This document shows, one piece after another, positions 8,988 through 36,045 of a DNA stretch of 64,000 nt; within the stretch, counting starts at the first letter, position 1, and every line of letters starts with the position of its first letter. The notes under the pieces are model-generated. The model did no database searches, was not told where the DNA came from, and saw only the letters and a list, made by a program, of their open reading frames with translations. This DNA comes from a virus: positions 19,914 to 83,913 of IMG/VR virus record IMGVR_UViG_3300019880_000001. One strand, written 5' to 3'. The translations under genes were made by a program, and so were the position numbers.

Positions 8988-9417
8988 TAAAACGCGCGTA
9001 TCCCGATCGTTTAACACGCGCAGATTATTTTCAATCGCGCACTCGCGTTGATCCGACGCCGATCTCCGGATCGACGCACACACGCAACCGTTCGTTCCTG
9101 TTGGCGTTTTATCCTTACGTGCGATCGGCGCACGAAGAGAGATCGCCTCTGTAACCACGACCGCAGTTCACCGCAATGCGTGTATTGCTGGACGCTTTGA
9201 TCTCGTGTTGCGATTCTTATGGACGAACCGTGACATGGGTCTTTACGACGATCGACTGTCTCAGCTCAGCGAACCGCGGCGTAGCCGACGTCTCGCTCAG
9301 CGACGTCCCCCATTGTCACAACCCACGCGGCGCAACCCGATGTTGCGCTCAAGCCCCGCGCCGATAGCTGAAGCGCGCCGGCCGTCGGCCGTTGCACGCG
9401 AATCCAAGGAAGAGAAG

Positions 9418-10865: not shown

Positions 10866-12182
10866 ATGTCCAAGAGCATCGTCGGTAGGCCCATGAAGAA
10901 GTTCGGTCAGGATCAGGAGCGCCCGAAGCGCGTTCCGTTCGGTCTCGGCGTCCCCGCAACGGACGGTACGCTGGCGGCCGATGCCGCTCAGAAGTGCCTT
11001 CGGTGCTCCTTCGGCAACATCCCCGTGATCGAGGAGGTCGTCTGGACGATCCCGCTCCCCCTCACGTCCGAGGAGGCGCTCTCGACGCTCGGTGACACGG
11101 TGAACCTGCTCTCGGGCAGCTCCAGCGTGCCTGGCGTTGCGTCGATCGACTCGACGTTCCTCATCAACGGCATTCTCCAGACGGACATTCTGGCGCAGGG
11201 CATCGGCGTCCACGTGTTCTGCGAGCCGATGAGCTTCTCGACCATCGGCAACTCTTTCGTTGCGCCGGCGACGACGGTCAACCCGCCCCCCTCGCCCGAC
11301 GTGTTCACCACGAACGATCTGACGAACCGTGCGATGAGCACGTCCGTCACGGCGACTGGCGACAACTTCGGCCCGGCCGTGTTCGAGTTCGGTGCCGACG
11401 TCTGGCGCGCAGGCTGGAACTTCATCAACGCCTACCAGTTTCAGTGGAAGACCTCGCAGCGCGAGCTCGTCCTCAATGAGCTGGCGGCCGACGTGTCGTA
11501 CTTCGGGTCCTTCGCGGATGCCGAGGCGAGCGGCACGAGCGAAGTGGCCATCATCGAGTTCGTCGCCGCGGTCAACGCGACGTACCGCTCGAAGGGCTCG
11601 TCAACGATCTTCCTGCCGGTCAACTTCCGTCGGGTCGGTTCCGTCAACAGCACGAGCGCGACCAACAACGTTGGCGTGTTCCACCCGACGCGCGACTTCG
11701 ATCTCGCGCCGGTCACCTGGGGCGGTCTCCGATGGCAGGGGTACGGCTGCAAAGGCCAGATGTACCGCCCGATCGAGAGCCCGTGCTTCCTCGAGCGCGG
11801 TATCCCCATCGGGATGCTCTTCGTCGTGCAGGACGCCGTGCACCAGGCGCTCATGCTCCAGGCCGTCACGCTCAACAACGAGCCCTTCGGCGTGAACGTC
11901 AGCGTCGACGAGAACCTCGTCGATGCAACGGCGCCCACCGCGGCGTCCGGCGTTCCCACCGCAGGCGCCATCGTCGTCGGCGGCGCGAACACCATGCTGG
12001 AGCAGACGCTCGACGCGACCCCCGTGCTCGTTCCGCAGCAAGTCAACACCTCCCGCCAGATCTTCAAGGGCGGCATCCTGAAGCTCGCGATCAAGATCAA
12101 GGGCTGGGAAATGCCCGGTGGCTGGAAGGCGTACTGCCAGTCCAACCTGCCCCAGATCATGACGGGATCTGCGTCGGTCTGA
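10866..12182 (+). CDS. Candidate major capsid protein (beta-rich, not recognisably HK97)
   Basis: Strong RBS AGGAGAAG, highly biased C/G-ending codons, followed by a terminator, beta-strand-rich; function inferred from context. Confidence 0.55.
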   Translation: MSKSIVGRPMKKFGQDQERPKRVPFGLGVPATDGTLAADAAQKCLRCSFGNIPVIEEVVWTIPLPLTSEEALSTLGDTVNLLSGSSSVPGVASIDSTFLINGILQTDILAQGIGVHVFCEPMSFSTIGNSFVAPATTVNPPPSPDVFTTNDLTNRAMSTSVTATGDNFGPAVFEFGADVWRAGWNFINAYQFQWKTSQRELVLNELAADVSYFGSFADAEASGTSEVAIIEFVAAVNATYRSKGSSTIFLPVNFRRVGSVNSTSATNNVGVFHPTRDFDLAPVTWGGLRWQGYGCKGQMYRPIESPCFLERGIPIGMLFVVQDAVHQALMLQAVTLNNEPFGVNVSVDENLVDATAPTAASGVPTAGAIVVGGANTMLEQTLDATPVLVPQQVNTSRQIFKGGILKLAIKIKGWEMPGGWKAYCQSNLPQIMTGSASV

Positions 12183-12260: not shown

Positions 12261-12860
12261 ATGACGCAGGACGCGCTTCAACTCAGACGAGATCGTGATC
12301 GCAAATATGCGAGCGAGAAGCGCGCTTCTATGTCGAAGTTGGACAAGAAGGCGTACCTAGCCAAAGAGCGAGAACGGGGTCGCCGTCGTTATTTGGACCC
12401 CGATAAGAAGTCCGGGCGAGTGCGCACGAAAAAGAGAATCGAACAACGGAAGCTCGCAGAGGGGATCTGCGTGTCTTGTACGGAGCTAGCCACGTGCGCG
12501 CGGTTCTGCTTCTACCACTGGCTGGTGAACATCGGCGGCAAGTACGGGTTGAGGGTCAAAAACGGAGGGGTCGAGACTTTGAAAGCGCTTTGGGGCGAGC
12601 AAAACGGCCTGTGCGCGCTCACCGGAGAACTACTAGTTCCGGGGCAAAATGCTTCCGTCGATCACATTCTTCCTCGCTGCCGTAACGGCCGTAACGAAAA
12701 AAGCAATCTCCAGTGGGTGACAAAAGAGGTCAACTACTTCAAGCGCACACGAACCAGCTCGGAGCTTGTTAGAATGTCCTTGAAAGTCGCTCATCACGCC
12801 GAACGTGACGTCAGATCGAACGTCCTTCAGTTCAAGAAGACGTCAGAAGGAAAGGGTTGA
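12261..12860 (+). CDS. Free-standing HNH endonuclease
   Basis: QNGLCALTG...ASVDHILP...G.NEKSNLQWVTKEVNYFK; more AT-rich codons than its neighbours. Confidence 0.85.
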   Translation: MTQDALQLRRDRDRKYASEKRASMSKLDKKAYLAKERERGRRRYLDPDKKSGRVRTKKRIEQRKLAEGICVSCTELATCARFCFYHWLVNIGGKYGLRVKNGGVETLKALWGEQNGLCALTGELLVPGQNASVDHILPRCRNGRNEKSNLQWVTKEVNYFKRTRTSSELVRMSLKVAHHAERDVRSNVLQFKKTSEGKG

Positions 12861-13471
12861 GTCACATGCAGCCGCACGACCACCAAATTCGCAATCTTGC
12901 TTTGTACGCTCCGAAGATCGCCTTCGGGATGATGGCCGGCGTCCCCCGCGTGCCGTTCATCGCAGACATTCCGATCCAGTTCTCCTCGTCGACGGTCAAC
13001 GCGCCGCCGGTCGTTCAGAACTTCCAGAACAACCTGACGCAAGACACGGTCATCGAGCGGATTGCGTACAACCTCGGTCAGCCGAACAGCTTCCCCGGGA
13101 GCCCGTTCCAGTCGACGTACTTCAACCAGCTCAAGCAGAGCGGGCAGATCGGCGTCGGCGTGCAAATGGCCGTGTACGGCGGTCCCAAGTACAACGTCAA
13201 CGACACCTTCACCGATCTCGGCACCCTCGCAGACGTGTTCGCGGTGACGTGGCCCAACGGGTGGCCGCTCCAGAAGCAGAGCAACGTGAAGGTGAGCGCA
13301 ATCCTCACGCAGACGCCGGTGAGCGTACCGTTCAACATCACCATGACGTTCCTCGGGTGGCAGTTCCTCTCGAAGGAGCTCGACGATCTTTCAGACGAGG
13401 AAGCGCGCGCGCGGTTGCGCAAGCTCGGCGTCGAAACTCCCGACCTGAAGATTCTGCTGTCCAACGGCTGA
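12857..13471 (+). CDS. Candidate small capsid/structural protein
   Basis: Beta-rich 204 aa, biased codons; RVPF motif and terminal strand (TFLGWQ) resemble 10866-12182 (KIKGWE). Confidence 0.55.
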   Translation: MSHMQPHDHQIRNLALYAPKIAFGMMAGVPRVPFIADIPIQFSSSTVNAPPVVQNFQNNLTQDTVIERIAYNLGQPNSFPGSPFQSTYFNQLKQSGQIGVGVQMAVYGGPKYNVNDTFTDLGTLADVFAVTWPNGWPLQKQSNVKVSAILTQTPVSVPFNITMTFLGWQFLSKELDDLSDEEARARLRKLGVETPDLKILLSNG

Positions 13472-13472
13472 A

Positions 13473-14363
13473 ATGAACGAGCGCATCGACAACGTGATTC
13501 GATTGCAGGCACGCCCAGACGGCGTGGCGCCATCGATCCGTTCGATCCTCCACAACGGCCGAAACGAGATCGTCACCAACGGCCCGAACTCGGAGTTCGG
13601 GTTCATCGGAAGCGATCCGTACAACACGAACGCCTACACCGGCCTCGTCGTTCCGGCGGTACCCAGTGGGACGATCGGAAACGCGCGCTACCTCTTCGTG
13701 CTCGCGCGTCAGAGTTTCAGCACTGGAGAGCAGAGCTCGGAACACCGCGGCGTGCGCCTCGTCGGAATTCGGCAGTACGCCGAGCTCATCGCGCGTCTTC
13801 CGGCTCGTGTCGCGCCGCTTGCCGCCAGCGGCCCTCCCGCCGGCAGCACCGTCACGTTCCGCAAGGAGATCACGAGCCCGCTCTGGCACCCGCAGGACGG
13901 CAACATCTCCTGGCACGTGATGATCATCAACAAGGTGCAGCGCGATACGCGCAACCCCGCCAACACGGACGGGATCATCTACCAGGACGCGTTATCGCCC
14001 GCGCTCATCTACCAGACTTTGGCGCCGTACACGCCTCCGAACGGCGGACGCCCGTGGGGCACTCCGCTCGGCGCGAGCCTCGGCAACATCCACGAGCTTC
14101 GATACCCCTGGCGCACCGAACGGAGCGAGCGCGTGCTCGACATTCCGATTCCGGTGCCGTGCGACGTCGTGCTCTTCGCGAGCGTTCGTCAAAACGACCC
14201 GACACTCAACCCGGTCTTCACCGAGGCGACTGTTGTCACGAGGCAGTTCGCCGCGTTGTCTCCCGAAGACCAGTTCATCGCCGCGTACCCCGCGTCTGCT
14301 CAATACGGCGCCATCGCCGGCTCGCTCGTGTTCGATCAGAACCTCGGAGCGTGCGTCCCATGA
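13473..14363 (+). CDS. Candidate structural (vertex/minor capsid) protein
   Basis: Beta-rich 296 aa in the structural operon. Confidence 0.5.
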   Translation: MNERIDNVIRLQARPDGVAPSIRSILHNGRNEIVTNGPNSEFGFIGSDPYNTNAYTGLVVPAVPSGTIGNARYLFVLARQSFSTGEQSSEHRGVRLVGIRQYAELIARLPARVAPLAASGPPAGSTVTFRKEITSPLWHPQDGNISWHVMIINKVQRDTRNPANTDGIIYQDALSPALIYQTLAPYTPPNGGRPWGTPLGASLGNIHELRYPWRTERSERVLDIPIPVPCDVVLFASVRQNDPTLNPVFTEATVVTRQFAALSPEDQFIAAYPASAQYGAIAGSLVFDQNLGACVP

Positions 14364-17226: not shown

Positions 17227-17475
17227 ATGCGAGTCGTGATCGACAACGCGGCGCTCAGGAGGAACCGTTCCTGTAAGGGCGCCTACACCAACCGGGAATG
17301 GGATCCTGCATTGCAGGCGCTCGTGTTCCCGAATTGGGAAGAGTCGGTCAAAGAGCTGCTGTCGACTCCGAAGGGGCTCGCTCGTCTCGAATGGTACGTC
17401 CGGCACAATCTCGTGCCGATGACGATGTCTGAATTCATCGCGGCGAAAGCCGCACGTGGAGGCTCCAGTGAGTGA
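17227..17475 (+). CDS. Hypothetical protein
   Basis: 82 aa ORF in the operon. Confidence 0.55.
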   Translation: MRVVIDNAALRRNRSCKGAYTNREWDPALQALVFPNWEESVKELLSTPKGLARLEWYVRHNLVPMTMSEFIAAKAARGGSSE

Positions 17476-17974
17476 GTTCGTCGGACGTACAGGATCGATG
17501 CGTGTTTACTCGTACCCGGAAACTCGACGCAGCGGCAGCGATCCGCTGACGGCGTTCGCGCGGAACTTCGCGACGGGCACGAAGGGCAGCAATACGGTCG
17601 GGCCTGACGGCCTGGATATCGTGTGGAACGCGATCGACGTCGGAGTCGATCCTGACAACGACGTCCCGATCACTCCAAAAGCCACCGGGCAGTTGCTCAT
17701 CACCGGCGTCATCACGCTCACCAACGGAACCGGCGCGCCGATAGACGCCGTCGTTACGGTGCATCTCGACGGTGTCGCCGCCGGACCGTCTTTCGCTACG
17801 ATGACGATCCCCGCAGGCGCTACGGCCGCCATTCCTTTCATGGCAGAGACCGAAGTCATCTCGCCGCTCAACGAGGAGCACTTGATCCAAGTTTTCGTCG
17901 ACGGCGACGGTTTGACCACCGTATCCGACGGCTCGGTGATCAACGTTCAAGAGGTCGTACTCTCGACCGGTTGA
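17468..17974 (+). CDS. Beta-sandwich virion protein with divergent N-terminal tag
   Basis: GTG after GGAGG; MSEFVGRTGSMRVYSYPE; beta-rich body. Confidence 0.65.
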   Translation: MSEFVGRTGSMRVYSYPETRRSGSDPLTAFARNFATGTKGSNTVGPDGLDIVWNAIDVGVDPDNDVPITPKATGQLLITGVITLTNGTGAPIDAVVTVHLDGVAAGPSFATMTIPAGATAAIPFMAETEVISPLNEEHLIQVFVDGDGLTTVSDGSVINVQEVVLSTG

Positions 17975-17985
17975 AGGAGACGCGC

Positions 17986-18168
17986 ATGCCCAAGCTGATT
18001 CACCAGGAGACGATGTGCTGCGGGTACAAGAAGTGCCCGGAGCTCAAGATCTTCGAAGACGGCTCCGTCGAACTCAGCGACAACGACGAGGAGATCGGTT
18101 CGGTCGGAACCCTCAAGCTTCGTCCCGAAGTGATGTCTCGCCTCGTCGAGATCTACTCGAAAATCTGA
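17986..18168 (+). CDS. Small Cys-containing protein (DUF397-like pattern)
   Basis: RBS AAGGAG; CCGYKKCPEL...GSVELSD. Confidence 0.55.
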   Translation: MPKLIHQETMCCGYKKCPELKIFEDGSVELSDNDEEIGSVGTLKLRPEVMSRLVEIYSKI

Positions 18169-18171
18169 ACC

Positions 18172-19347
18172 ATGACCCGCATCATCGGTAGGGGCAGGTA
18201 CGCCACGAGCGTATACCCGAGCAGTCCAAGCGGCGGCTCGGGCGCTGGCGGCGAAGTACTGCCCTTCTCGAATTTGCGCTACCTCGATCCGGCAACGACA
18301 CACGCGGCGCCGCACACGGGATCGGTCAGTAACCCGTGCGTGACGGTCGCCGAGATCGCCGCGCTGACCCCCGGGTTCATGGTGATCCAGGTCGCCGGAA
18401 GCCCAACGGACGACCCGGCGCTGATCCCCGCCGGAACGTTGTGCGGCATCACGGGAATGCCGCAGGTCGGTTTCTTCTTTCCGTCGATGACGCTCGAAGC
18501 GAGCGCGAATGTTTCGATGCGTGACGTGTACTTCGTCAACATCGGCGAGCAAGAGGGCGGCGGAGCGGCGCAGCTCAATGTCGTGCTCGCCCTCGACCCG
18601 TCGGAATCGACCTCGTTCGCGAATCAGATTCGCCAGATAGATCTCCCGAACTCTCAGGTCTCGCTGACTCGTTGCAACGTCTACTCGTCGACTAGCGCGA
18701 CGTTCTTGACGCTCTACCAGTGTCGTATTTCGAATCTCGGTGGAAACCCCGCGCCTGACATCACGATGAACAACGGCGGGTTTTTCTACGCCGAAGGCAC
18801 CGTGTTCAGTTCTTCTGTGCCGTCCACCATCACGCTCGACACGAGCGGAGGACGATTCGTCGAATGCACGTTCACCGGAGCCGTGACGATCGACAATGCG
18901 ACTGGGATCGCGACGTTCGATCAAATTTCGTTGGATAGCCTCAACGCGGCGGGGGGTACTATCACTACTCCCGAGAACCTGGCTCTGTCTCCGGCGTCGT
19001 TGATCGTTCCTATGATCGGAACGCAGACCGTCGCGGCCAGCGCCGTTCTCACGATCGGAGCTAACGCTTCTGCCGTACCTCAGTACGCATCCAAAGCGAC
19101 CGCATTCATCCCGCAGGCCGCCGCCGTCGGAGAGTCATTGGCGATCACGCTCGTCATCGCGGGAGGCGCCGTGATCGGGTCAGTGACCGTAGACGATACG
19201 ACTCCCGCCGGCGCCGTAGACATTCCGCTCATAACGCCGAAAGTTCCGATTCCGTCGGCCGGGGTGCTCCTTGCCGATCTCAACTACACGGCCGGAGGCG
19301 GCCCAACGCCACTTGCCGCAACCGTTGTCCGCGTCGATTTGATTTGA
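18172..19347 (+). CDS. Spike/receptor-binding protein candidate (beta-helix-like), GRGRY tag
   Basis: [16 protein letters not shown]; YLDP...GSVSNPCVTV cap motif typical before pectin-lyase-like helices. Confidence 0.7.
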   Translation: MTRIIGRGRYATSVYPSSPSGGSGAGGEVLPFSNLRYLDPATTHAAPHTGSVSNPCVTVAEIAALTPGFMVIQVAGSPTDDPALIPAGTLCGITGMPQVGFFFPSMTLEASANVSMRDVYFVNIGEQEGGGAAQLNVVLALDPSESTSFANQIRQIDLPNSQVSLTRCNVYSSTSATFLTLYQCRISNLGGNPAPDITMNNGGFFYAEGTVFSSSVPSTITLDTSGGRFVECTFTGAVTIDNATGIATFDQISLDSLNAAGGTITTPENLALSPASLIVPMIGTQTVAASAVLTIGANASAVPQYASKATAFIPQAAAVGESLAITLVIAGGAVIGSVTVDDTTPAGAVDIPLITPKVPIPSAGVLLADLNYTAGGGPTPLAATVVRVDLI

Positions 19348-19360
19348 AAGAGGTATTCCA

Positions 19361-20590
19361 ATGAGCCGAGTCATAGGTCGAGGTCGCTACGCCACCGAAA
19401 CGTACCCGTCAGGCCCCGGAGGCGGAGGCGGCGCCGGCGGCGCGAGCGTTCCGTTCGCTCGGCAGCGTTTCATCGACGGGGATACGGCGCAGACCGGATT
19501 GAACGGATCGGCCGCGGAACCGTACGAGACCATCGAGCAGTTCATGACTGCGCGGGACAACACCATCTCGGCGGCTGATTCTGCGGCGAACTTCGTCGGG
19601 TGGCTCATGCCGGCGCTCGCCGGGTACGTGGAAGACGTTGCATTCCGCGCTCGGTGCTCGACGGAGCTCCGAGCCGATTCCATGTCGGTGCCTGGTACCG
19701 GCGGCGTGACCATCGACGGTGATATTTCGTGGACCAACACGTCAGGTACCGCGGCGGCGCCGGCGGCCATTGCTTCGCTTCACAACATCAACGTGACGGG
19801 CACCATTACGGTGACCGACAACGCCGAGTCTCCCGAATTGCTATTCTCCATCAGCGGAGACGAAGAGCCTGGAGGATCCTCTGCGGTCATAGGCGGGTTC
19901 GATTCCAGCACGACCACGACGTTGGCGTCGATATCGCTCAACAACGCGCAGTGCACCGGCGATCTCACCGCAGGGGTCGCGGCCGACAGCGCTGTGGTGA
20001 TCCTCACAGGCGGATCTATAATTACCGGAGACATCACCGCAAAAGCACTTCAATGCAACAACGCGGTCATCGACGGAGCCGTTACGGTAAACGCGGCTGG
20101 ATTTGCGATTTTCCGCGCTTCTGCTTTCGCAGGGGCATGTGCGCTCACGGCTGCCACCTCATCGTTCGATGGGGACTCCTGGCTTAGCTTCTTGGCAAAC
20201 GGCGGAACTCGTGTTGCAGGAACGACTGTGCTCGTCACAGGAGGCGCCAGTACCGCTCTCGTAGAAGGTGCGGCTCTGACAGGCGCGTCTACGAACGTGT
20301 CTCTGAACGGCACGGGAGCAACGGCTGGTTTCACTGGCGCTAACTCCGGCAACCACTACACGACGTCGAACGGGACCCCGACCACCGTCACACTCAAAAC
20401 CGGCGGCGGAGAGTTGGTGGGCGACACGATGCTCATCACGAAGACGGATCTCGGCGCGAACGTTGTAGCGGTCAAGAACAACGCCGGAGCGCAGATCGCA
20501 TCGATCCCAACGCTCGCCAAAGGGTTCGTGCTCGCACGATTCAATGGCTCCGACTGGGTCTTCGTGTCGGGAGGTTCGATGCTGGCATGA
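19361..20590 (+). CDS. Spike/receptor-binding protein candidate, GRGRY tag
   Basis: [16 protein letters not shown]; FIDG...GSAAEPYETI; C-terminal ARFNGSDW as in fibre tips. Confidence 0.75.
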   Translation: MSRVIGRGRYATETYPSGPGGGGGAGGASVPFARQRFIDGDTAQTGLNGSAAEPYETIEQFMTARDNTISAADSAANFVGWLMPALAGYVEDVAFRARCSTELRADSMSVPGTGGVTIDGDISWTNTSGTAAAPAAIASLHNINVTGTITVTDNAESPELLFSISGDEEPGGSSAVIGGFDSSTTTTLASISLNNAQCTGDLTAGVAADSAVVILTGGSIITGDITAKALQCNNAVIDGAVTVNAAGFAIFRASAFAGACALTAATSSFDGDSWLSFLANGGTRVAGTTVLVTGGASTALVEGAALTGASTNVSLNGTGATAGFTGANSGNHYTTSNGTPTTVTLKTGGGELVGDTMLITKTDLGANVVAVKNNAGAQIASIPTLAKGFVLARFNGSDWVFVSGGSMLA

Positions 20591-20922
20591 GCGGATTCCT
20601 GCTCATCTCAGCGCTCGTCGGCGCAACTCTTCTCGTCGTACGCAGCACCCTCTTTGATCCGATTCGTCGGATTTGGCCCGCGCTCTTGCGATGCTCCCAG
20701 TGTTTCGGCACGTGGGTAGGCATCGCCGCGAGCGCGAGTGGCGTCGTGCCGGTAGGGCACGGGCGGATTCTTGACGCGCTCATCGTCGGAGCGGCGACAA
20801 GCTTCTTGTCGCTGCTAGCCGATGCTGTACTCTTGTATTTGCTCGGCGATCCGAGCGAGGAGCCCGAATCCCATGCGCCGAAAACTGACGACTCTGAAAG
20901 CAAAGATGGGGCACAGCCATAA
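20587..20922 (+). CDS. Membrane protein (DUF1360-like CxxC..W)
   Basis: LFDPIR...LLRCSQCFGTWVG, three hydrophobic segments. Confidence 0.6.
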   Translation: MSGFLLISALVGATLLVVRSTLFDPIRRIWPALLRCSQCFGTWVGIAASASGVVPVGHGRILDALIVGAATSFLSLLADAVLLYLLGDPSEEPESHAPKTDDSESKDGAQP

Positions 20923-21168
20923 CGGTTGCGCTCGCGCGCTCGCGGACATCTCGCTCTACCGAGAGCACCGAAACAACCACAACGTGCACGCCAACGTCGG
21001 CGGTGCGGTTTCGCCTCACTACGACACTGGTTTTAGCGGATGGTCGAACGCCTCTCGCCCGAGAGACAGCGCCATCTCTTTGCGATCCGTTACGGCACTC
21101 AGCTAGTTCGATCGGAGTAAGCCGAAAAATATTCAGTCGGCGATTTTTCGTCGAATCGAAAGCCTGAA

Positions 21169-22289
<1,121 letters not shown>

Positions 22290-22293
<4 letters not shown>

Positions 22294-23021
22294 GCACCGC
22301 GGGCAACGGAAACAACACCAAGTACCTTCAAGACAACGCGAACCTAGGCACTTTCAACGGCGCGTGCTCGGTGTGTTTTTGGGTATGCCCCTCCGGCAAC
22401 ACATTCGGCCCCGGCACGGACGGGTTCGTCACCGTTCTCGATCTCGGCGTGAACGGCGGCGGCGGCAACTTCGACTGGCAATTCTACTTTGACATTTCTC
22501 CGAACAACCTCACGCTGCACTACACGAACTACACAAGCGGGACGCCGACCGTCGATCAAGTAGTAGGCACACTCAGCGCGACAGTGATGTCCTTCGTCGC
22601 ACTGACACACGACCCGGCTGCCGCCGGTGGCACCACGAAATTGTACCTAGGAACCGGACCAGGATCCGCCTTGTCGTTGGTTGCTACGCTTACCGGCGAT
22701 GTGTGGACCGGCACCATGGGGAACCTCACGCTCTTCAACTGGTTCGGAGACACCGAACCGCTGAACGGCGAAATGACGGGCTGGCGCCAATGGTCCGTAG
22801 TGCTCACGCAGACGGAGCTCGAGAACGAGTACTCCTCGATCAAACCGAAGAGCCGAATATCGAATCTCGTACGGTTCTACCCGTGGCTCAACGAGCCGCA
22901 GGACAACATCGACCAGTCGGGGAGCGGCTTCAACATGACGAAGACGGGCACGCTCGCCACCGCACGCCGTATGCCGTCGGTCCCGTGGGGTTCGCCTCCG
23001 GTCGCGATGGGCTACGGTTAA
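22290..23021 (+). CDS. LamG/concanavalin A-like lectin domain protein
   Basis: SVCFWV...FVALTHD...KLYL...[20 protein letters not shown]...LVRFYP...DQSGSG. Confidence 0.8.
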
Positions 23022-24097
23022 CGCGTTATCCCCGCGTACCAACTCGGACTAGAGATCATGTCGAAATATTGCTCGTACAGCGGGGCCACGTTGCCCATCG
23101 TGTAGATCTGAGCGTTCTCTAGACACCGCTCAGGAGATATTTGATCTACGTGCATCGCGGCGTTCAAGAACTGCTTGAAGCTCCGACATCGAAATCCGGT
23201 GATTCCGTGCGCGACCGTTTCTGGGAACGCACCCCAATCGCTTGTGATGACCGGGGTTCCGGAAAAACCAGCCTCGACAACGACACCGCCGAACGGCTCG
23301 AGGTAGTGTGTTGGCACGAAGAGAGCCTTGGCACCCGCTAGCAGCTCGCGCCGCTTCGCGACGTCTGCGATGCCGGCGTACTCGACGTGATCGTCTTTTG
23401 ACGGTTTCTCACCGGGGGCACCGGCGATGACGAGTTTCGCCCCGAGCTCGCGCGTGACGTCGACGGCGATCTGATACCCCTTTTGGTGCGTCATTCGCCC
23501 TAAAAACAGAAAGTAGTCGCTCTTCTTCGCGCGAAACTCGAAATCGCCGGGGTCGAAGTAGTTGGGGACGACCGCGTCGTACCAAATACCGGTGCGCTGC
23601 GCTTGAAGACCGTACACGTGATGCATCCAAGCGTACGACTCGAAGCACCGTCGTTGCGTAAACACACCCTCGTAGCCCACACCGAACTCGACGGCGGCGG
23701 TACCGTTCAAAGCGTGCGCGATACTCTCTTGCCCGCGTCCCATGATCAAACAGAGAAATTCGTCTGGACGCCCGACGATGCGTTTCCGAGCTCGCCGGAC
23801 GGCCTTGTTATTCCAAAGATTGACGTGATGTCCGCTCAACGGAGCGGCGTGCCAGATCTTCTTCTCGTACCACTCTTGGCCGCCGAAGAGCCTGTCCTGA
23901 TCTTCTACCGAGAACACCTCGACGTGTTCCGTCAGCTCGCCGAGATCGTCCGAGCCCTCGTTACCGTAGTGGATCACTTCGTGGCCACGCTCACTCATCA
24001 TTTTGCAGAAACGCTGCACTTTGCCGGTGTACGCACATAGACCGTACTTCTTGTTCGACACGGTGTGCGCGAGAGCAAAAACGTGCAGCCTGGCCAT
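23018..24097 (-). CDS. Glycosyltransferase family 4 (GT-B)
   Basis: FLFLGRMTHQKG...EPFGGVVVEAGFSGTPVITSDWGAFPETV. Confidence 0.9.
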   Translation of the reverse strand: MARLHVFALAHTVSNKKYGLCAYTGKVQRFCKMMSERGHEVIHYGNEGSDDLGELTEHVEVFSVEDQDRLFGGQEWYEKKIWHAAPLSGHHVNLWNNKAVRRARKRIVGRPDEFLCLIMGRGQESIAHALNGTAAVEFGVGYEGVFTQRRCFESYAWMHHVYGLQAQRTGIWYDAVVPNYFDPGDFEFRAKKSDYFLFLGRMTHQKGYQIAVDVTRELGAKLVIAGAPGEKPSKDDHVEYAGIADVAKRRELLAGAKALFVPTHYLEPFGGVVVEAGFSGTPVITSDWGAFPETVAHGITGFRCRSFKQFLNAAMHVDQISPERCLENAQIYTMGNVAPLYEQYFDMISSPSWYAGITR

Positions 24098-24714
24098 CAG
24101 AGAACCCCCCGCACGGCACTGTATGCACGCCCAAAGCACCCGTCATGCGAGAGCACGGTGACGTCGCCCCCGGACCAGTTCTCGTTGCTCCCCTCGTCCA
24201 GCCACTCGTCCAAGCTAGACGCGGTGAGCATATGTGGGTGGCCGTCGTGAGGCGGAAGATCAATCCACTCGAAGATGCGAACTCGTCGCCCGAGCGTCAT
24301 CGCGTTTCGAATGATCAGCTTCGGGTCTTCGACGTGCTGGAGGCAATTGTAGATCCACACCTCATCGAAAGGCTTGTGCCCCCCATCGAGAACGTTCTGG
24401 AAACGCTCGATCACGGTCTCGCCTGGGTCGTGCAGAGCCTCGATACCGGTCATGGCGTACCGCAAGTAGACCCACGCCGGATACTGCAACGGGTCGGTCA
24501 CGACACGCCTCTTGGCCCCTCGAGTCTTCAAGAGCATCGAGGCGGGCCCCGCGCCGATGTCCAAGATGTGAGAGTGCTCCGGTACCACGAAATCCCAGTG
24601 CTGGCGCTTGATCCCCATGAGAGAAGCGTACACGTAGTGCTTGCGCTCCTCGTAGAAGGTGTTGCTGCAATCCCCCCAAAAAGCCGCCTCAAAGTCCTGC
24701 GCCGGGTTTCCCAT
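24097..24714 (-). CDS. Class I SAM-dependent methyltransferase
   Basis: ILDIGAGP, FDEVWIYNCLQHVEDP. Confidence 0.85.
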   Translation of the reverse strand: MGNPAQDFEAAFWGDCSNTFYEERKHYVYASLMGIKRQHWDFVVPEHSHILDIGAGPASMLLKTRGAKRRVVTDPLQYPAWVYLRYAMTGIEALHDPGETVIERFQNVLDGGHKPFDEVWIYNCLQHVEDPKLIIRNAMTLGRRVRIFEWIDLPPHDGHPHMLTASSLDEWLDEGSNENWSGGDVTVLSHDGCFGRAYSAVRGVL

Positions 24715-24790
24715 TGTTTTACGTTCGTATACTCCACGATCGCCGAACGAGTGTCCAGATCAGGTGTCGTGGTACCCTTCCGGACGAGCC

Positions 24791-25345
24791 ATGGCGCGTC
24801 GAATCCCCTGGAAAGCCATTGCGATAGGCGGTGCCGTCGCTGGGGGTGTCAGCGCTATTGTACTTGCCAGCCGCAAAAAGCTTCCCTCGTCTTTGCCGGC
24901 CCGGCGCGTGGCGCTCATCGGAGACTCGTACGCGGTAGGGCTCGGGCCGGAGCTCCAAAAGCTCCTCCCCGACTTCAAATATGAGGGGCACGTTGGGAAC
25001 ACCACTGCGGCGTGGGCTGCGCACAGCGCAAGCTGCGGCACGTGCGGCGACTGGCTCACGACGTTCAAGCCCGACGTCGTGCTCGTGTCTCTCGGAGTCA
25101 ACGACGGCGTCTCGCCGAACCGAAAGAACTACAACGACATCGTGAGCGCGCTGCACGGCATCGGTGCTCGAGTTGTTTGGATCGAACCTCCGGCAGGTGT
25201 CATCATCCCGGCGATACGCGCCGCTATCACCTCGCTCGGCGTGACGACGGTGCCTCCCACTCAAACACCTCTCGCCGGCGACGGACTGCATCCGCAAAGC
25301 TACGGACCGTGGGCTCAAGAAGTCTTCCAGGCGGTGCGCCAATGA
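24791..25345 (+). CDS. SGNH/GDSL hydrolase with N-terminal TM
   Basis: LIGDSY, SLGVND, DGLHP blocks. Confidence 0.85.
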   Translation: MARRIPWKAIAIGGAVAGGVSAIVLASRKKLPSSLPARRVALIGDSYAVGLGPELQKLLPDFKYEGHVGNTTAAWAAHSASCGTCGDWLTTFKPDVVLVSLGVNDGVSPNRKNYNDIVSALHGIGARVVWIEPPAGVIIPAIRAAITSLGVTTVPPTQTPLAGDGLHPQSYGPWAQEVFQAVRQ

Positions 25346-25575
25346 TGCTCAACGGACGCCCGACGATCGGGTTCGGAGACGAGCACACCGTCCCGCCGCT
25401 AGAGCTCCGTACGGCCTACACCGTGAAGGGGCTCGGCATCGGCGCCGGGGGACTCATCGGTTACCTCACCTTCGGGCCCTTGGGGATGGTTCTCCTTGGA
25501 GGCGCCGGCTGGTACGTGGGCAACCGCGTCGCCGTCAACGCCGAGAAGAAATTCGTAGAAGGACAACACACATGA
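25342..25575 (+). CDS. Small membrane protein
   Basis: MMLNGRPTIGFGDE; Gly-rich TM; ATGA overlaps. Confidence 0.65.
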   Translation: MMLNGRPTIGFGDEHTVPPLELRTAYTVKGLGIGAGGLIGYLTFGPLGMVLLGGAGWYVGNRVAVNAEKKFVEGQHT

Positions 25576-27392
25576 GGATCATCGGCAGAGGACGTTACGT
25601 CTACGGAACGTACCCAACGACAAGCGCGTCGGCAACGAGCGGGCCCCCCAGCGGCCCCGCCGGCGGAGACCTGGGGGCTACGTACCCAGACCCAACCGTC
25701 GTGGCGCTCGAGGAAACGAGCACGCCGGCGAGGCTCGCGATCGGCGCAATCCCAGACGGCGAATTGCTCATGCGTTCGGGGCTGGCGGTCATCGGCGCAG
25801 GCGCCGCCATGGGAGCCGCCATCACAGTGCGTCGGATCAGCGACAGCAACCTTGGCGGCACGAAGCTGGTCGACATAGCGACCACCAGCCTACGCGACGG
25901 CACGATCTCGTGGGTCTACAGCGTCGGAGCCCTCTTTCAGCTCGTGAAAGCGCCGAGCGCGGCACTTCTCGCGGCGGTCGACGGGATCACCGTCGTCGCG
26001 TCTACCGCAACCGCAGGATCCGTGTGGGTACGTCTCGAGGCCACGGCAAACCAGCGGTTTGGGGTCGAGCCGCCGCTCTTCATCGATCCTTCCGCCGGCA
26101 GCGACGACAACGACGGACTCCTCGTCGGAAACCCACTCAAGAGCGCCGACGAATGGTCCCGCCGAACCAACGGCGTCACCATGCTCGCGTCTTTCACGGT
26201 CACCTGCGCCGCCGGCGACGTCGGTAGCTTCTTCGGCAAACAATACTTCGACAACCGCAGCACAGCGGTCACGATCAGCATCGTCGGCACGAAGAGCCTC
26301 AGCGCTACCATGACGGTCTCTTCGATCACGCCGGAGAACAGCGCACCCGGAGTACAACAAGAATTCTGGATGGTAAAAACCGGAGGTCCGGTGCTCACCG
26401 GCGCGGAGCGACTTCGGATACTTACGAGTTCTATTCCGGCGAACGTCGGAGCCACAGGATGCGTGCGGGGGTTCGAGGGAAGCGATCCGACGCATCCGTA
26501 TACCTCCACGTGGAGCAACGGCGCGACCTCACTGGCAAACCTCTTCCCCGCTGCGGGCGACACGTTCGCGGTCGAGACACTGCTCACCACGTTCCGCGCG
26601 GACGACATGGACACGCGCAACATCGGCCAAGGTTGCATCCTGTCGTTCATCGACATGGTTCATCCGGCGACCACCAGCGTACCTGGCATCTCCCCAAGCT
26701 CCAACAACGCGCGCGTTACCCCGTCGGGGGACCACCTGTTCATCTCGTGCATCTTCGGCACCACAGGGGGCGGGATCGTTCGTATCGACAACGATCAGCT
26801 CTGGTTCCGCGGATGCGAGTTCAAGTCGCAAGTCCATTTCGTTGGCGGCGGCCCCTCAGGAATCGTGGCCTATCAATGCACGTTCCGTGTAGGCGCGGTC
26901 ATAAATTGTTCGTTCTCTCAAACAGGATGCGTATTCGAAGGTGTCACCTCGACCGCCACTTTCTGGTCCAACACCGGAGACGCCCTGTTCTCGCGCATCA
27001 CAGGCACCGCGTTCGGGGTGGGAGGCGTGTTTGCAACTGTCCTAGGCAGAGTTTGGACGCCGCTCGCCGGAGCTCGCAGCGCGGTGACGATTGGAATCAG
27101 CGTCTCCACCGGCGGTACCCTGAACTCCCAAACGTTCGCGCAGATCAACGATAGTATTTCAGCATCAACGGGCGCCATAGTCATGAACGGGATCGTCGTA
27201 CACGGGTACACCGTCGATCCGAACGCGAATTCTCGCGTGCAGTCGGTCAACACCACGATAGGTGCGCTGATCTACATTCACGACATCGCTGGAGATCCGG
27301 TGAACCCACCCGTGTCGGGGTGCTTCCAATACTCAGTCGCCGGGCAAATGCGTCTGATGAATCCCGCCGGGGTTGTCACACCACTCAACTGA
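25572..27392 (+). CDS. Large spike/depolymerase-like protein, GRGRY tag
   Basis: MRIIGRGRYVYGTYP; AGGDLGATYPDPTV fibre motif; FIDPSAGSDDNDG..NPLKS cap; beta-helix-like F..C.F repeats. Confidence 0.75.
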   Translation: MRIIGRGRYVYGTYPTTSASATSGPPSGPAGGDLGATYPDPTVVALEETSTPARLAIGAIPDGELLMRSGLAVIGAGAAMGAAITVRRISDSNLGGTKLVDIATTSLRDGTISWVYSVGALFQLVKAPSAALLAAVDGITVVASTATAGSVWVRLEATANQRFGVEPPLFIDPSAGSDDNDGLLVGNPLKSADEWSRRTNGVTMLASFTVTCAAGDVGSFFGKQYFDNRSTAVTISIVGTKSLSATMTVSSITPENSAPGVQQEFWMVKTGGPVLTGAERLRILTSSIPANVGATGCVRGFEGSDPTHPYTSTWSNGATSLANLFPAAGDTFAVETLLTTFRADDMDTRNIGQGCILSFIDMVHPATTSVPGISPSSNNARVTPSGDHLFISCIFGTTGGGIVRIDNDQLWFRGCEFKSQVHFVGGGPSGIVAYQCTFRVGAVINCSFSQTGCVFEGVTSTATFWSNTGDALFSRITGTAFGVGGVFATVLGRVWTPLAGARSAVTIGISVSTGGTLNSQTFAQINDSISASTGAIVMNGIVVHGYTVDPNANSRVQSVNTTIGALIYIHDIAGDPVNPPVSGCFQYSVAGQMRLMNPAGVVTPLN

Positions 27393-27395
27393 AAA

Positions 27396-28100
27396 ATGCA
27401 GATCGAAACCTCACTGCTCGCGCTCCCTGGAATCGGCACCGTCACGCCGACGTTCCTGTGCTCGCTCGTGGGCATGGCCGTGCGCCACGGTTGGGATCCG
27501 AACGGCATCGCGCTCGTCATCAGCGAAGAGAGCCTCTTCAACCCCTCCGCGAAGAACCCCCACAGCTCGGCCAGCGGCCTGATCCAGTTCATCGATTCGA
27601 CGGCAGCGTCCCTCGGGACTACGACCGCCCAGATCCGCGCCATGAGTGCCGAAGAGCAACTCCCGCTCGTGGAACGCTTCTTCCAGACGAGCCTCAACGG
27701 GAAAATCCCCGCTCGCATCGAAGACTATTTTCTCTCGGTGCTCGGGCGCCCCGATCTCATCGGGAAACCAGACGACACGCCGGTCTTCGTCAGAGGTTCG
27801 GGCGGCTACGCCGGCAACCCACAGATCGACATCGGCGGGGACGGCGTCATCACGGTCGGCGACACGCGCGCGTACATGCAGCGAGTGCTCCAACGGGCGA
27901 AAGGCACGGTCGGCACTTACCCCGCGATCTGTTACGAGAACGTCACGGCGCCTTCGACGCGAAGCAACGGCACGCTTGCTGCTTTTGCGCTCGGTACGAT
28001 CATGGCCGCTGTGGGGTACGGCACCTACAAGGTGTTGAGCGCGTTGAGCCCGAGACCAGAATCCACGGCTCTACCGCCGCCGGCTTTCAGGCGCACATGA
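27396..28100 (+). CDS. Lytic transglycosylase (SLT-like) with C-terminal TM
   Basis: ISEESLFNPSAKNPHSSASGLIQF; EF-hand-like DIGGDGVITVGD; TM near the C-terminus. Confidence 0.85.
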   Translation: MQIETSLLALPGIGTVTPTFLCSLVGMAVRHGWDPNGIALVISEESLFNPSAKNPHSSASGLIQFIDSTAASLGTTTAQIRAMSAEEQLPLVERFFQTSLNGKIPARIEDYFLSVLGRPDLIGKPDDTPVFVRGSGGYAGNPQIDIGGDGVITVGDTRAYMQRVLQRAKGTVGTYPAICYENVTAPSTRSNGTLAAFALGTIMAAVGYGTYKVLSALSPRPESTALPPPAFRRT

Positions 28101-28546
28101 CGAACAAGACGCTCCTCTGGCTCTCGGCAGGCGGAGCCGCCGCGGGGGCCGCCATCCTCCTCTGGAAAAGGACGGGAGTGGATGTACCCACAACTCCGTC
28201 CATTCCTGTGGCAGCGCCCGGCGAGGCCACGAAAGTCACGCTCGCGGTACCCGCAGGTTGGCGTCGCGTCACCGGATCCGAAGTGTCCGCGCTCCCCGAG
28301 CTCGCATCGCAAGCGAACTCGCTCATGAACACGCCGGGTTTCACGTCGATGCGGTACGGAACGCTCGCCCCGTTCGTAGCTTCCGATGGCAACACGTACG
28401 CGACGTGGATCGAACAGCACTACCATGAGCCGGGTGGCTCTACGAAGCTGTGGGGGCTACACCATGGGGTGACGGTACTAGCCCAAGCGAGCGCGCCCTC
28501 GGTTCTCGCCGACGAGTGGCCCGGCGTCAGACGTGGAAGCACATGA
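28097..28546 (+). CDS. Membrane-anchored protein (domain resembles 2464-2883)
   Basis: N-terminal TM; PAGWRR...LASQANSL...WIEQH...HHGVTVL. Confidence 0.7.
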   Translation: MTNKTLLWLSAGGAAAGAAILLWKRTGVDVPTTPSIPVAAPGEATKVTLAVPAGWRRVTGSEVSALPELASQANSLMNTPGFTSMRYGTLAPFVASDGNTYATWIEQHYHEPGGSTKLWGLHHGVTVLAQASAPSVLADEWPGVRRGST

Positions 28547-29127
28547 TCCTCCGCCCCAATATTCTCACCAAGCACACTTCGTTCGAGGTACTGCGCGCCT
28601 ACAGCATCGCGCACGTTCGCGTGTTCACAACGCCCATCACCGGCACGCTCGCCGAGATGCTCACCGCGTGGAGTGCGTTCGAGACCTGGTTTTGGAAACT
28701 CTGTCACGACGACAATCTCACGAACATGCGCGGCACGTGGCGAGGCAACGGTACGACGTTCAAAGCGAGCGAGATCGACGCGCACGGCAAGGAGATCTTC
28801 TTGCCCCCGAGCGCGACGAACGTCTTTCGCGCCTACACGGACTCCCCCGGAGTGCCGGCAATAGTCGCCTCCGCTGAGGACAACATCCGTTTCGTCGGTA
28901 CGGCGAGCAACCCCAGCGTGCGCCCGAATCGTTACCAAGAAGCGTGGGATGCGGCCCAGCGAGGCGACGTCGAAGGCTTCGTGATGGGGCTCGCGGAACC
29001 GAAGCTCCCCGGCGTCGAACACGTGCCCGGCTTCTTCACCGCGAACCCGCGCGTGTACCTAGCGGGGGTGCAGCATTGCCTCGACACGCTCAGGCCCGAC
29101 TTCGATACGTACGAAAGAGCACCGTGA
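28543..29127 (+). CDS. Glucosaminidase (GH73)-like muralytic enzyme
   Basis: FET...DNLTNMRG...FRAY...RY..AW...GFFTANPRVY pattern. Confidence 0.6.
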   Translation: MILRPNILTKHTSFEVLRAYSIAHVRVFTTPITGTLAEMLTAWSAFETWFWKLCHDDNLTNMRGTWRGNGTTFKASEIDAHGKEIFLPPSATNVFRAYTDSPGVPAIVASAEDNIRFVGTASNPSVRPNRYQEAWDAAQRGDVEGFVMGLAEPKLPGVEHVPGFFTANPRVYLAGVQHCLDTLRPDFDTYERAP

Positions 29128-29330
29128 TCGCGCGATTGATCTGCTTGCTCCTCGGGCATTCACTCGATGAGCTCGCGGTGCTCGAGGGAGCCCAACCCCC
29201 TATCTACGTGACGCACGGCAGGTGCGCTCGGTGCAAGACGCCCGTCATCACGGTGCGTGATCTTCGCGACGAAAAAGACCAGCAAGCGGACGTCGATACG
29301 GTCGACGAGCGCTCAGACCGGTTGAAGTAG
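29124..29330 (+). CDS. Small Zn-binding-like protein
   Basis: RLICLLLGH...CARC. Confidence 0.5.
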   Translation: MIARLICLLLGHSLDELAVLEGAQPPIYVTHGRCARCKTPVITVRDLRDEKDQQADVDTVDERSDRLK

Positions 29331-29873
29331 GCTCGTGAGCGGCTGAACGAGCCCGGCGCCGCTGAGACGTCTGCACTGTAGGGCGTTCGGCGCCGGAAGA
29401 TCGTTCACCAAGTCGGCTTGGCTGAGGTAGGTCAACCGCACTACCGGAACGGACGGCAGTGCCACAGAGAATACGGTAGCCGCGCTGAAAACCTCAGCGG
29501 CGCCTGCGGGGTTGCTGTTGAAAACACACGAGACCGGCGGTCCGGAGCCGCCGTCAATGTAGTTCCAAGTTGTGCCGCCGTCCAAACTCACTTCGACACG
29601 TATTACGAGATTGATCGAGCCTGCTTGTGAGCTCGCTATCGTGAACACGAGAGCTCCGTCTAGAACATCGTCCGCTTCCCAGTCGGTGAACGTGATGACG
29701 ACGTTTCCGCCCACACCCGGCACCGGTGTGAAGTCGCCCACCGGATCCAAGTTGCCTGAAGCGGTGTAGGCCGTTCCGTACTGCAACAGCAACGGGTCAC
29801 TGCCGCCTGCCGCAGCGGGCTTCTCTGGGTACGTTTCGGTCGCGTACCGGCCTCTGCCCATGAGCCTGCTCAT
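29313..29873 (-). CDS. Beta-sandwich virion protein, GRGRY tag
   Basis: [16 protein letters not shown]; VEVSLDGGTTW. Confidence 0.75.
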   Translation of the reverse strand: MSRLMGRGRYATETYPEKPAAAGGSDPLLLQYGTAYTASGNLDPVGDFTPVPGVGGNVVITFTDWEADDVLDGALVFTIASSQAGSINLVIRVEVSLDGGTTWNYIDGGSGPPVSCVFNSNPAGAAEVFSAATVFSVALPSVPVVRLTYLSQADLVNDLPAPNALQCRRLSGAGLVQPLTSLLQPV

Positions 29874-33866: not shown

Positions 33867-34070
33867 TCATCGCCGGTCCGTCGCCCCACTTCGGAAGCGT
33901 TGGATGAACCAATCGATCGACCATTGTGGTGGAAGAACCCCATCGTTCACTGCGGCAAGAATGTTCGCAGCGGCTTGTGCCGCGAACGGCGCCCACCCTA
34001 ATGCGATGCACTCCAACTCCGCGCGCTCTTCGGGCGTGATGATGTCGAGCCCGGTACCGCAGGGGATCAT
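33867..34070 (-). CDS. Small hypothetical protein
   Basis: ATGA overlap with the ATPase stop. Confidence 0.45.
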   Translation of the reverse strand: MIPCGTGLDIITPEERAELECIALGWAPFAAQAAANILAAVNDGVLPPQWSIDWFIQRFRSGATDRR

Positions 34071-35815: not shown

Positions 35816-35826
35816 CAACGACTCCT

Positions 35827-36045
35827 TCACGTCACAGGTTCTTCGCGCGTGCGATCCACGACCCATCGCACATCGGCTACGCTGACGCCGGCGAGCGCGA
35901 TCAGCGACGGTGAGTAGAGATCGCCACCGACGAGCTGCCAGATCCGACGCTCTTGGTAGAGCACCGTGCCGTACTGCGAATGCTCGCCGGTATCCCAACC
36001 CTTCGCGAAGAAGAGCCGCATGGCCCACTTGAACGCGGTGCTCAC
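35827..36045 (-). CDS. Hypothetical protein
   Basis: Coupled small ORF. Confidence 0.45.
   Translation of the reverse strand: MSTAFKWAMRLFFAKGWDTGEHSQYGTVLYQERRIWQLVGGDLYSPSLIALAGVSVADVRWVVDRTREEPVT

Follow-up and report, generated by a model that had tools for sequence, protein, structure and literature searches.

A short N-terminal peptide common to otherwise unrelated proteins of an uncultured virus lineage: a candidate virion-attachment tag

We have studied a peptide of 16 residues that is shared by the N-termini of five otherwise unrelated proteins encoded by a virus of the IMG/VR collection. The window analyzed is a stretch of 64,000 nucleotides, corresponding to bases 19914 to 83913 of the 83,913-bp record IMGVR_UViG_3300019880_000001, for which CheckV gives a completeness rating of 100%. 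We refer to the common peptide as the tag, and to the remainder of each protein beyond its linker as the body. From the comparison of sequences presented below we suggest, with moderate confidence, that the tag serves as a virion-attachment plug for interchangeable fibres and spikes.

A common N-terminal peptide in front of unrelated bodies

The initial annotation of this DNA had reported five open reading frames (ORFs) that begin with nearly the same peptide. Translation reproduces the N-termini quoted there, all of the form M-x-R-[IVL]-[IM]-GRGRY-x4-YP, for the ORFs starting at 18172, 19361, 21169 and 25572 on the plus strand and at 29873 on the minus strand; we shall use these start positions to name the genes (Table 1). 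When the window and the whole 83.9-kb genome were scanned in six frames, the pattern GRGRY-x4-YP was found at the starts of these five ORFs and nowhere else. A degenerate DNA pattern of the tag was likewise matched five times, compared with an expectation of 0.00 from 100 dinucleotide-preserving shuffles.

The copies resemble one another as peptides much more than as DNA. On pairwise comparison 8–12 of 13 residues are identical, but just 24–31 of the corresponding 39 bases, and for each pair 2–8 of the 8–12 identical residues differ in the codon used. Across the copies arginine is specified by all of CGA, AGA, AGG, CGC, CGT and CGG. The use of different codons for the same tag residues indicates that selection acts at the level of the peptide, as had been claimed from the first inspection of the sequence. 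The same data bear on an alternative explanation, whereby the shared start is a feature of the nucleic acid (the boundary of a recombination cassette, an element of translation initiation or the product of recent gene conversion) and the peptide itself has no function. The tags do lie at module boundaries where bodies are swapped, and they include several rare Arg and Ile codons (AGG, AGA and ATA) in a genome with a G+C content (GC) of 62%. However, the many synonymous differences between copies are not what this explanation requires; moreover, the same synonymous pattern is found between the copies of the alternative tags of the relatives L091 and L092/L093 (see below), and the peptide has been retained over tag-bearing genomes and contigs that span 59–73% GC. 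Because of the synonymous variation among the copies we reject the nucleic acid explanation, which we regard as most improbable.

As a separate observation, the tags are rich in rare codons (AGG, AGA, CGA, ATA and GGT), though the GC at third codon positions (GC3) of the genome is near 0.75. These codons may have an effect on the translation of the first codons of the genes.

A linker of Gly, Ser, Pro and Ala residues follows every tag, and behind it lies a body that is unrelated to the other four by BLASTP, in agreement with the description given in the initial annotation. Of the bodies listed there, the collagen fibre and a beta-helix can be recognized. The 21169 protein matches the Pfam family Collagen (PF01391) at 2.7e-16, with 59.5 bits against a cut-off of 27.2, and tail-fibre PHROGs at values down to 3.6e-36. 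The body of the 19361 protein is a right-handed parallel beta-helix of the pectate-lyase/tailspike kind in its ESM Atlas model, with a TM score of about 0.6. No other tagged protein of the lineage is so widely conserved; it has 13 orthologues and a body cluster of eight members, and a word-index search with its residues 1–40 returned orthologues of 19361 only. The 18172 protein has no match in Pfam or PHROG, and a tagged orthologue of it is present in the relative L078. Similarly, the 25572 protein gave no usable match in sequence and profile searches of Pfam, PHROG or the PDB; a relative of its body is present in L080.

A divergent sixth copy had been suggested at 17468, and the comparison with relatives bears this out. 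The GTG start codon of 17468 is preceded by GGAGG. Its orthologues begin MGEFRIGR[KR][YF]AQHTYP, and the gene always lies just before that of a 60-residue protein. Furthermore, the body of the protein, which contains a FARNFA motif, carries the canonical tag in the metagenome contigs L129 and L134, and a further variant in L079. These sequence relationships indicate that 17468 truly belongs to the tag family, in a diverged form.

One earlier statement fared less well. The copy at 29873 had been described as lying on the opposite strand under its own promoter. The strand is correct, but a promoter scan of the 109-bp divergent intergenic region near 29873 found no sigma-70-like site, a result that weighs neither for nor against such a promoter.

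Table 1. Tagged proteins and conserved neighbouring gene products, in window coordinates
Feature	Length (aa)	Coordinates	Strand	Description
Tagged protein 1	391	18172..19347	+	Tag 18172-18219; Gly/Ser linker; body begins VLPFSNLRYLD
Tagged protein 2	409	19361..20590	+	Tag 19361-19408; Gly linker; right-handed beta-helix body
Tagged protein 3	374	21169..22293	+	Tag 21169-21216; collagen-like GPT repeat stalk; C-terminal globular domain
Tagged protein 4	606	25572..27392	+	Tag 25572-25616 (MRIIGRGRYVYGTYP); Ser/Thr/Pro linker; large body
Tagged protein 5	186	29313..29873	-	Tag 29826-29873
Variant-tag protein	168	17468..17974	+	GTG start; N-terminus VSEFVGRTGSMRVYSYP
c65, small Cys-containing protein	60	17986..18168	+	Always immediately upstream of the tag-gene cluster
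tm111, small membrane protein	111	20587..20922	+	2-3 hydrophobic helices (hydropathy); inside the tag-gene cluster
Candidate major capsid protein	438	10866..12182	+	Strongest codon bias (GC3 0.90); highest conservation
c204, conserved beta-rich protein	204	12857..13471	+	Between the capsid candidate and c296
c296, jelly-roll protein	296	13473..14363	+	Conserved even where the capsid candidate is merely 43-45% identical

Distribution, variation and polarity of the tag in related viruses

When IMG/VR was scanned with a DNA pattern, about a dozen contigs, of high GC and 37–125 kb in length, were found to carry the tag at the start of an ORF, often in several copies; this position holds for all true occurrences in the collection. 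Eight full genomes contain between one and five copies each, N-terminal every time. Using a stricter pattern, a scan of JGI metagenomes gave 73 tags on 53 loci, and all 73 are located 3–6 codons after the start codon. Most of these loci are merely 1–6 kb long; core genes of the lineage are nevertheless present on 28 of the 53.

Does the tag travel with a particular kind of virus? The initial annotation had proposed a test of its co-occurrence with homologues of 10866, 12857 and 13473, and each of the 11 tag-bearing viral records holds a homologue of the 438-residue capsid candidate encoded there, with 68–80% identity. The tag is thus confined, as far as tested, to one lineage. The earlier statement that it belongs to no named family also stands, in that the tag region has no family in Pfam or PHROGs, and a literature search by motif string returned primer codes only.

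The consensus sequence of the tag is M-S-R-[IV]-I-G-R-G-R-Y-A-[RT]-E-T-Y-P, followed by x-x-P and then by the Gly/Ser-rich linker. No variation is seen at G6, R9, Y15 or P16 and almost none at R7 or G8, a degree of conservation that was partly enforced by the search patterns. Taking this genome and its relatives together, about 30 body clusters can be distinguished among 44 different complete tagged proteins. On the evidence of this comparison, a modular arrangement of one tag with exchangeable bodies is strongly supported.

Relaxed and de novo searches of related loci revealed the tag variants GRGRH, GRGRT, GRNRT and GRGRN, together with an inserted form GRRGRYHGETYP, and SRGRVVHGETYP. Other relatives, belonging to sister clades, carry a different N-terminal peptide. 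Two genes of L091 have MG..[LT]G.KNRSP.TYE, while four ORFs of L092, and two of L093, start with [IV][SF][RF].G.R.V.GFG[LIV]G. This latter peptide occurs directly after the capsid-gene block (L092:15070-19359 and L093:14828-16017, in the form [IV][SF][RF].G.R.V.GFG[LIV]G[DE]), and its carriers include an SGNH hydrolase and a lectin-like protein. The genomes with the GFG-type peptide also retain a gene of the IGR[GN]RTARETYP type, beside the 60-residue and membrane-protein genes, elsewhere in the genome. It would therefore appear from these sequences that two tag systems can coexist in one genome. The change in start of several genes of one genome in concert fits with several proteins tracking one partner. 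Tables of capsid and core-protein identity set against tag type were uninformative: type-A genomes at the same capsid distance are equally divergent.

The polarity of the tagged proteins can be seen in L098, whose capsid candidate is 79% identical to that of the window. The ORF at L098:15750-21356 encodes a collagen-like protein of at least 1869 residues, having a single tag variant MAHIAGSRGRVVHGETYP at its N-terminal end and, at its C-terminal end, the beta-helix body of 19361 twice in tandem (46–47% identity, E = 8e-92 and 2e-81). This layout identifies the tag as the proximal end of the protein, and the beta-helix as its distal working end. A similar collagen protein of at least 1448 residues is encoded at L079:16973-21316. 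Judging from the L098 arrangement, one and the same body can either follow the tag immediately or be borne at the far end of a long stalk.

The initial annotation had gone on to propose that the tag is an adaptor by which interchangeable proteins are docked onto one socket of the capsid or vertex. The modular part of that proposal, i.e., the same tag on different bodies, has been upheld by the number of bodies, the constant N-terminal position and linker, the occurrence in one lineage, the alternative tags and the polarity of the L098 protein. The part concerning a capsid or vertex socket is more tentative, and is weighed in the following section.

A docking model and the nature of the particle

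In the model that we favour, the tag would form the proximal end of each fibre or spike. Beyond the flexible Gly/Ser/Pro linker would come the distal body, whether collagen stalk, beta-helix or small beta domains, by which the host surface is recognized or degraded. All the tagged proteins of one virus would share, or compete for, one type of socket on the particle. Given one shared socket type, the placing of about 50 bp ahead of any body would be enough for the virus to gain a new specificity.

Where such a socket might be depends on the kind of particle. When the main predicted proteins were scanned against Pfam and PHROG, no large terminase, portal or HK97 capsid came to light, and no tape measure, sheath or tube. 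A six-frame search of the whole genome with Terminase_6N, TerL_ATPase and Phage_capsid gave no match at E <= 1 under conditions where control genomes were matched, although very divergent genes could escape such a search; for the portal the negative result applies to the scanned proteins, as no genome-wide search aimed at portal families was made.

The candidate major capsid protein is represented by 173 clusters among 1.84 billion proteins. Its AlphaFold (AF2) model has a predicted local distance difference test (pLDDT) score of 83.4 and a predicted TM score (pTM) of 0.83, and comprises a pair of beta sandwiches that each include a helix. In structural comparison PRD1 P3 ranks first, with Z = 5.7 over 164 residues; the match is weak, as other capsid proteins of the jelly-roll type stand close to it and generic jelly rolls tie with it. 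With this protein, searches of the PDB by sequence and by profile gave nothing usable. The AF2 model of c296 has a pLDDT of 72.8. It is best matched by chain b of the HHIV-2 structure 6h82 (Z = 9.0, 120 of 135 residues, root-mean-square deviation 5.8), while the next best match has Z = 6.2, and there is a weak match to picornavirus VP1 at E = 0.014. The ESM Atlas provided no model of c296, and no match. With Foldseek at E <= 0.001 the capsid model matched nothing in the PDB or BFVD, and the c296 model nothing in the PDB. We infer that chain b of 6h82 is the penton protein from its residue range 42–173 and from the text of the accompanying paper (PMC6414509), rather than from the PDB entry. On the basis of its modelled fold, c296 is the best candidate for the penton (vertex) protein, and hence for the socket.

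Two further properties relate to the particle. Many of the module proteins contain hydrophobic anchor segments, identified by hydropathy, and a 653-residue ATPase of the HerA/FtsK type is encoded at 34067-36028 on the minus strand, matching HerA/DUF87, TrwB and phrog_2666 'terminase large subunit' (9e-21). The interpretation that we favour from these results taken together, while not regarding it as proven, is that of a tailless icosahedral virus with a jelly-roll capsid and probably an internal membrane.

In such a tailless jelly-roll virus the five-fold vertex would be the most likely location of the socket. The first candidate would be the penton-like c296, which could take up the peptide as an added strand. 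The second would be a vertex complex that includes the small proteins travelling with the tag genes, i.e., those encoded at 17986 and 20587. A complex prediction using two copies of c296 and a 36-residue tag alignment returned a score of 0.00; this was run without controls, and counts neither way. A more ambitious version of the model can be put forward tentatively, though we consider it on the whole doubtful. These would be undescribed viruses of soil and sediment bacteria with genomes of 60–125 kb, tailless, with jelly-roll capsids and probably membranes, in which the penton is a universal socket and the vertex takes as many as five or six interchangeable fibres, spikes and enzymes, held there by tags of co-evolving families. 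In certain clades there would then be two orthogonal tag systems, the IGRGR..ETYP type beside c65 and the membrane-protein gene, and the ..GR.V.GFGLG type beside the capsid genes.

A number of observations weigh against docking at a vertex. Tyr at position 10 of the tag varies to Thr, His or Asn, even inside one genome, so that this part of the motif is not a strict determinant of specificity. The fold matches that point to the type of particle are weak, with the Z of 5.7 for the capsid candidate, the single Z of 9.0 for c296 from a model of pLDDT 73, and no significant Foldseek match. Homologues of the HerA/FtsK-type ATPase are present in four of the seven related full genomes compared, and in none of G002, G006 and G009, all of which are complete or near-complete; the absence of this putative DNA-packaging enzyme from three relatives makes the type of virion less certain. 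Tailed phages, too, characteristically bear collagen fibres and beta-helix spikes. Lastly, we infer, rather than directly observe, the presence of the tagged proteins in the particle and their binding to it.

Could this then be a very divergent tailed phage, in which the tag anchors fibres and tailspikes to a baseplate or adaptor in the manner of the anchor-branch systems of podophages? The bodies have the classical folds of tail fibres and tailspikes, the PHROG matches of an SLT lysozyme (27396-28100) carry baseplate hub or tail annotations, and the concept is established in tailed phages (PMC6872550). However, the scanned proteins include no terminase, HK97 capsid, portal, tape measure, sheath or tube, and this in a genome rated as complete. 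The structural protein with the highest conservation and codon bias is modelled as jelly rolls rather than the HK97 fold, and the best match of c296 is to the presumed penton of a tailless membrane virus. Transglycosylases, for their part, are also present in tailless PRD1-type virions. We therefore view a tailed phage as decidedly unlikely.

The anchor-branch phages (Klebsiella phages of the KP32, KP34, Menlow and PhiK64-1 types, together with K1-5, K1E and SP6) are nonetheless informative as a comparison. There too, several spikes of one virus that are not otherwise related begin with a common short peptide, of seven to a few tens of residues; this peptide is not the same from one group of viruses to another, and functions as the plug for interchangeable depolymerase or spike bodies. 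The secondary spikes of the Klebsiella, K1-5 and SP6 phages dock by N-terminal peptides as short as 7–11 residues, which differ among the groups (PMC6872550), and the interaction of the N-terminal docking peptide has been validated experimentally (PMC13352976). Those phages are tailed, however, and the docking site of their peptide is a T4gp10-like branching domain in the primary tail spike or adaptor. Here no tail genes were detected, and the tag, which has no relation in sequence to those peptides, is carried by as many as five or six proteins. Pfam and PHROG scans of the module proteins found no T4gp10-like branching domain, no profile-profile or structure search for such a domain having been made.

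A different alternative is that the tag is a signal for processing, modification or assisted assembly, and not a docking surface. It might be cleaved by the papain-like enzyme with a transglutaminase fold that is encoded at 7968-8987, or be recognized by the 17986 protein acting as a chaperone or loader. The gene for the transglutaminase-core protein is a core gene located near that of the capsid candidate in every relative, and the 60-residue gene always adjoins tag genes. The [IV]-I-G-R-G stretch of the tag resembles (M/I/L)-X-G-X-G, which we take to be the form of sites cleaved by the adenovirus protease (adenain), and the hydrophobic-hydrophobic-Gly-basic start of the tag is retained in most variants. 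Yet the most conserved residues (E-T-Y-P and R9) are downstream of the putative cut, and would stay on the mature protein. Moreover, 16 conserved residues are more than a cleavage site alone needs, Gly8 (which follows the putative cut) is replaced in variants such as RNRT and IGRK, and no protease activity or processed form of the tagged proteins is known. A processing or assembly signal is consequently an unlikely explanation.

For the preferred reading of the tag as a docking peptide there are known parallels in tailless viruses. The tail of the adenovirus fibre binds the penton base through an N-terminal FNPVYPY motif (PMC3457955, PMC8156859). Like the proteins described here, the adenovirus fibre has a basic N-terminal stretch and an aromatic ...YP motif, followed by a shaft and a distal head (knob). 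In adenovirus the partner of the tail peptide is a jelly-roll penton in a capsid that is icosahedral and tailless, whereas here c296 is a penton-like candidate only. The sequences are also different (IGRGRY-x4-YP, not FNPVYPY), the host here is bacterial, and there are many more types of body per tag. There are also adenoviruses whose two fibres differ but share one tail. Among the tagged proteins there was no Pfam match to the adenovirus fibre family.

A second parallel is provided by HCIV-1 and HHIV-2, in which the spike contributes a terminal strand that inserts alongside strand G of the penton, with a small membrane protein beneath; the penton has been called a 'universal adaptor' (PMC6414509). 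The penton, terminal spike strand and small membrane protein of the group comprising HCIV-1, HHIV-2, SH1 and PRD1 would parallel c296, the tag and tm111, respectively. Unlike the present case, these viruses have one fixed spike complex rather than an exchangeable tagged family, and no sequence similarity to them was found. Genomes of this type are about 15–31 kb in length, compared with 60–125 kb for the relatives of the virus studied here.

The principle of a docking peptide is thus already known, from adenovirus fibres and podophage receptor-binding proteins. What is new, within the libraries and literature searched, is the peptide family itself, its breadth (about 30 bodies and several orthogonal variants) and the lineage that carries it. 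Short docking peptides make receptor-binding proteins exchangeable, allowing viruses to switch or broaden host recognition by the swapping of modules, and provide handles for plug-and-play studies of phage specificity. If the socket is the penton, the system would be the counterpart in a bacterial virus of the adenovirus fibre-penton joint, yet far more modular, and the tag would be a simple sequence marker for host-recognition genes across the lineage.

Neighbouring genes and the virus lineage

The genes around those encoding the tagged proteins are in the same order in all relatives. The series begins with genes for a 196-residue protein, GroES-like and RadC/JAB-like proteins, a Gln/Pro-rich protein of 546 residues and the transglutaminase-fold protein. 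These are followed by genes for an Arg-rich protein of 507 residues, the capsid candidate, the 204- and 296-residue proteins and a membrane-anchored protein of 237 residues, and then by the variant-tag gene, the 60-residue gene, tag genes, the gene for the 111-residue membrane protein and more tag genes. In the genomes G001, G007 and L092-L094 the block of 60-residue, membrane-protein and tag genes is relocated or inverted, yet is still together.

The gene for c65 is present on 24 of the 53 short tag-bearing metagenome loci. In a collection of 5.8 billion proteins c65 forms 79 clusters, which are specific to the lineage, and none has a Pfam domain or a name; the protein is a candidate for an adaptor, assembly factor or regulator. 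The membrane protein tm111 was found in every relative tested, with 44–72% identity, and is a candidate for a membrane component beneath the vertex. The mean column identity of c204 is 63%, and it has no match in the PDB, Pfam or PHROG. It is a candidate for a second protein of the capsid shell and thus for an alternative socket. The idea that c204 is a paralogue of the 438-residue protein is unsupported: profile-profile comparison revealed no similarity of either c204 or c296 to the capsid family (probability 0.2–0.3%).

About 68 bases from position 33 of the IMG/VR record recur at its end (positions 1-100 compared with 83814-83913), indicating that the genome is either circularly closed or terminally redundant, although it is labelled 'linear' in IMG/VR. 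The related genomes are 60–125 kb in length; some have terminal repeats, and one is classed as a provirus. No tRNA genes were found. Among the cultured phages of INPHARED there is no relative of a tagged protein or of the capsid candidate. This is a virus lineage without a cultured member, and its genomes exceed those of known tailless bacterial viruses several-fold in size. Homologues of the capsid candidate occur on short contigs, devoid of tags, that were binned with metagenome-assembled genomes of Polyangiaceae and Ca. Binatia, which gives only a hint as to the host.

Several other genes in this region have distinctive features. The 507-residue protein encoded directly upstream of the capsid candidate (9205-10728) contains about 200 residues rich in Arg, Lys and Ala, two hydrophobic segments and three DSPY.DA.QALR repeats; it may be a core protein that condenses the genome. 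Between 3758 and 4803 lie a small GroES-like gene, judged as such by eye and with no family match, and the RadC/JAB-like gene, both of which are kept in all relatives. The RadC/JAB-like protein matches phrog_10276 (1.5e-25) and has a metalloprotease-type motif H-x-H-P-S-G. The two genes make an odd pair to find beside capsid genes. An ORF of 199 residues with an HNH-endonuclease-like motif (12261-12860) is located between the capsid candidate and the 204-residue gene. As these two genes are merely about 100 bp apart in relatives, the HNH-like ORF appears to be a mobile insertion specific to this genome.

Three genes with a possible connection to carbohydrates are interspersed among the tag genes. 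They encode a protein with a concanavalin-A-like lectin domain (22290-23021), a glycosyltransferase on the minus strand (23018-24139; phrog_3408, 4e-91) and a membrane-anchored SGNH/GDSL hydrolase (24659-25345), and may have roles in the modification or degradation of surface sugars that are tied to host recognition.

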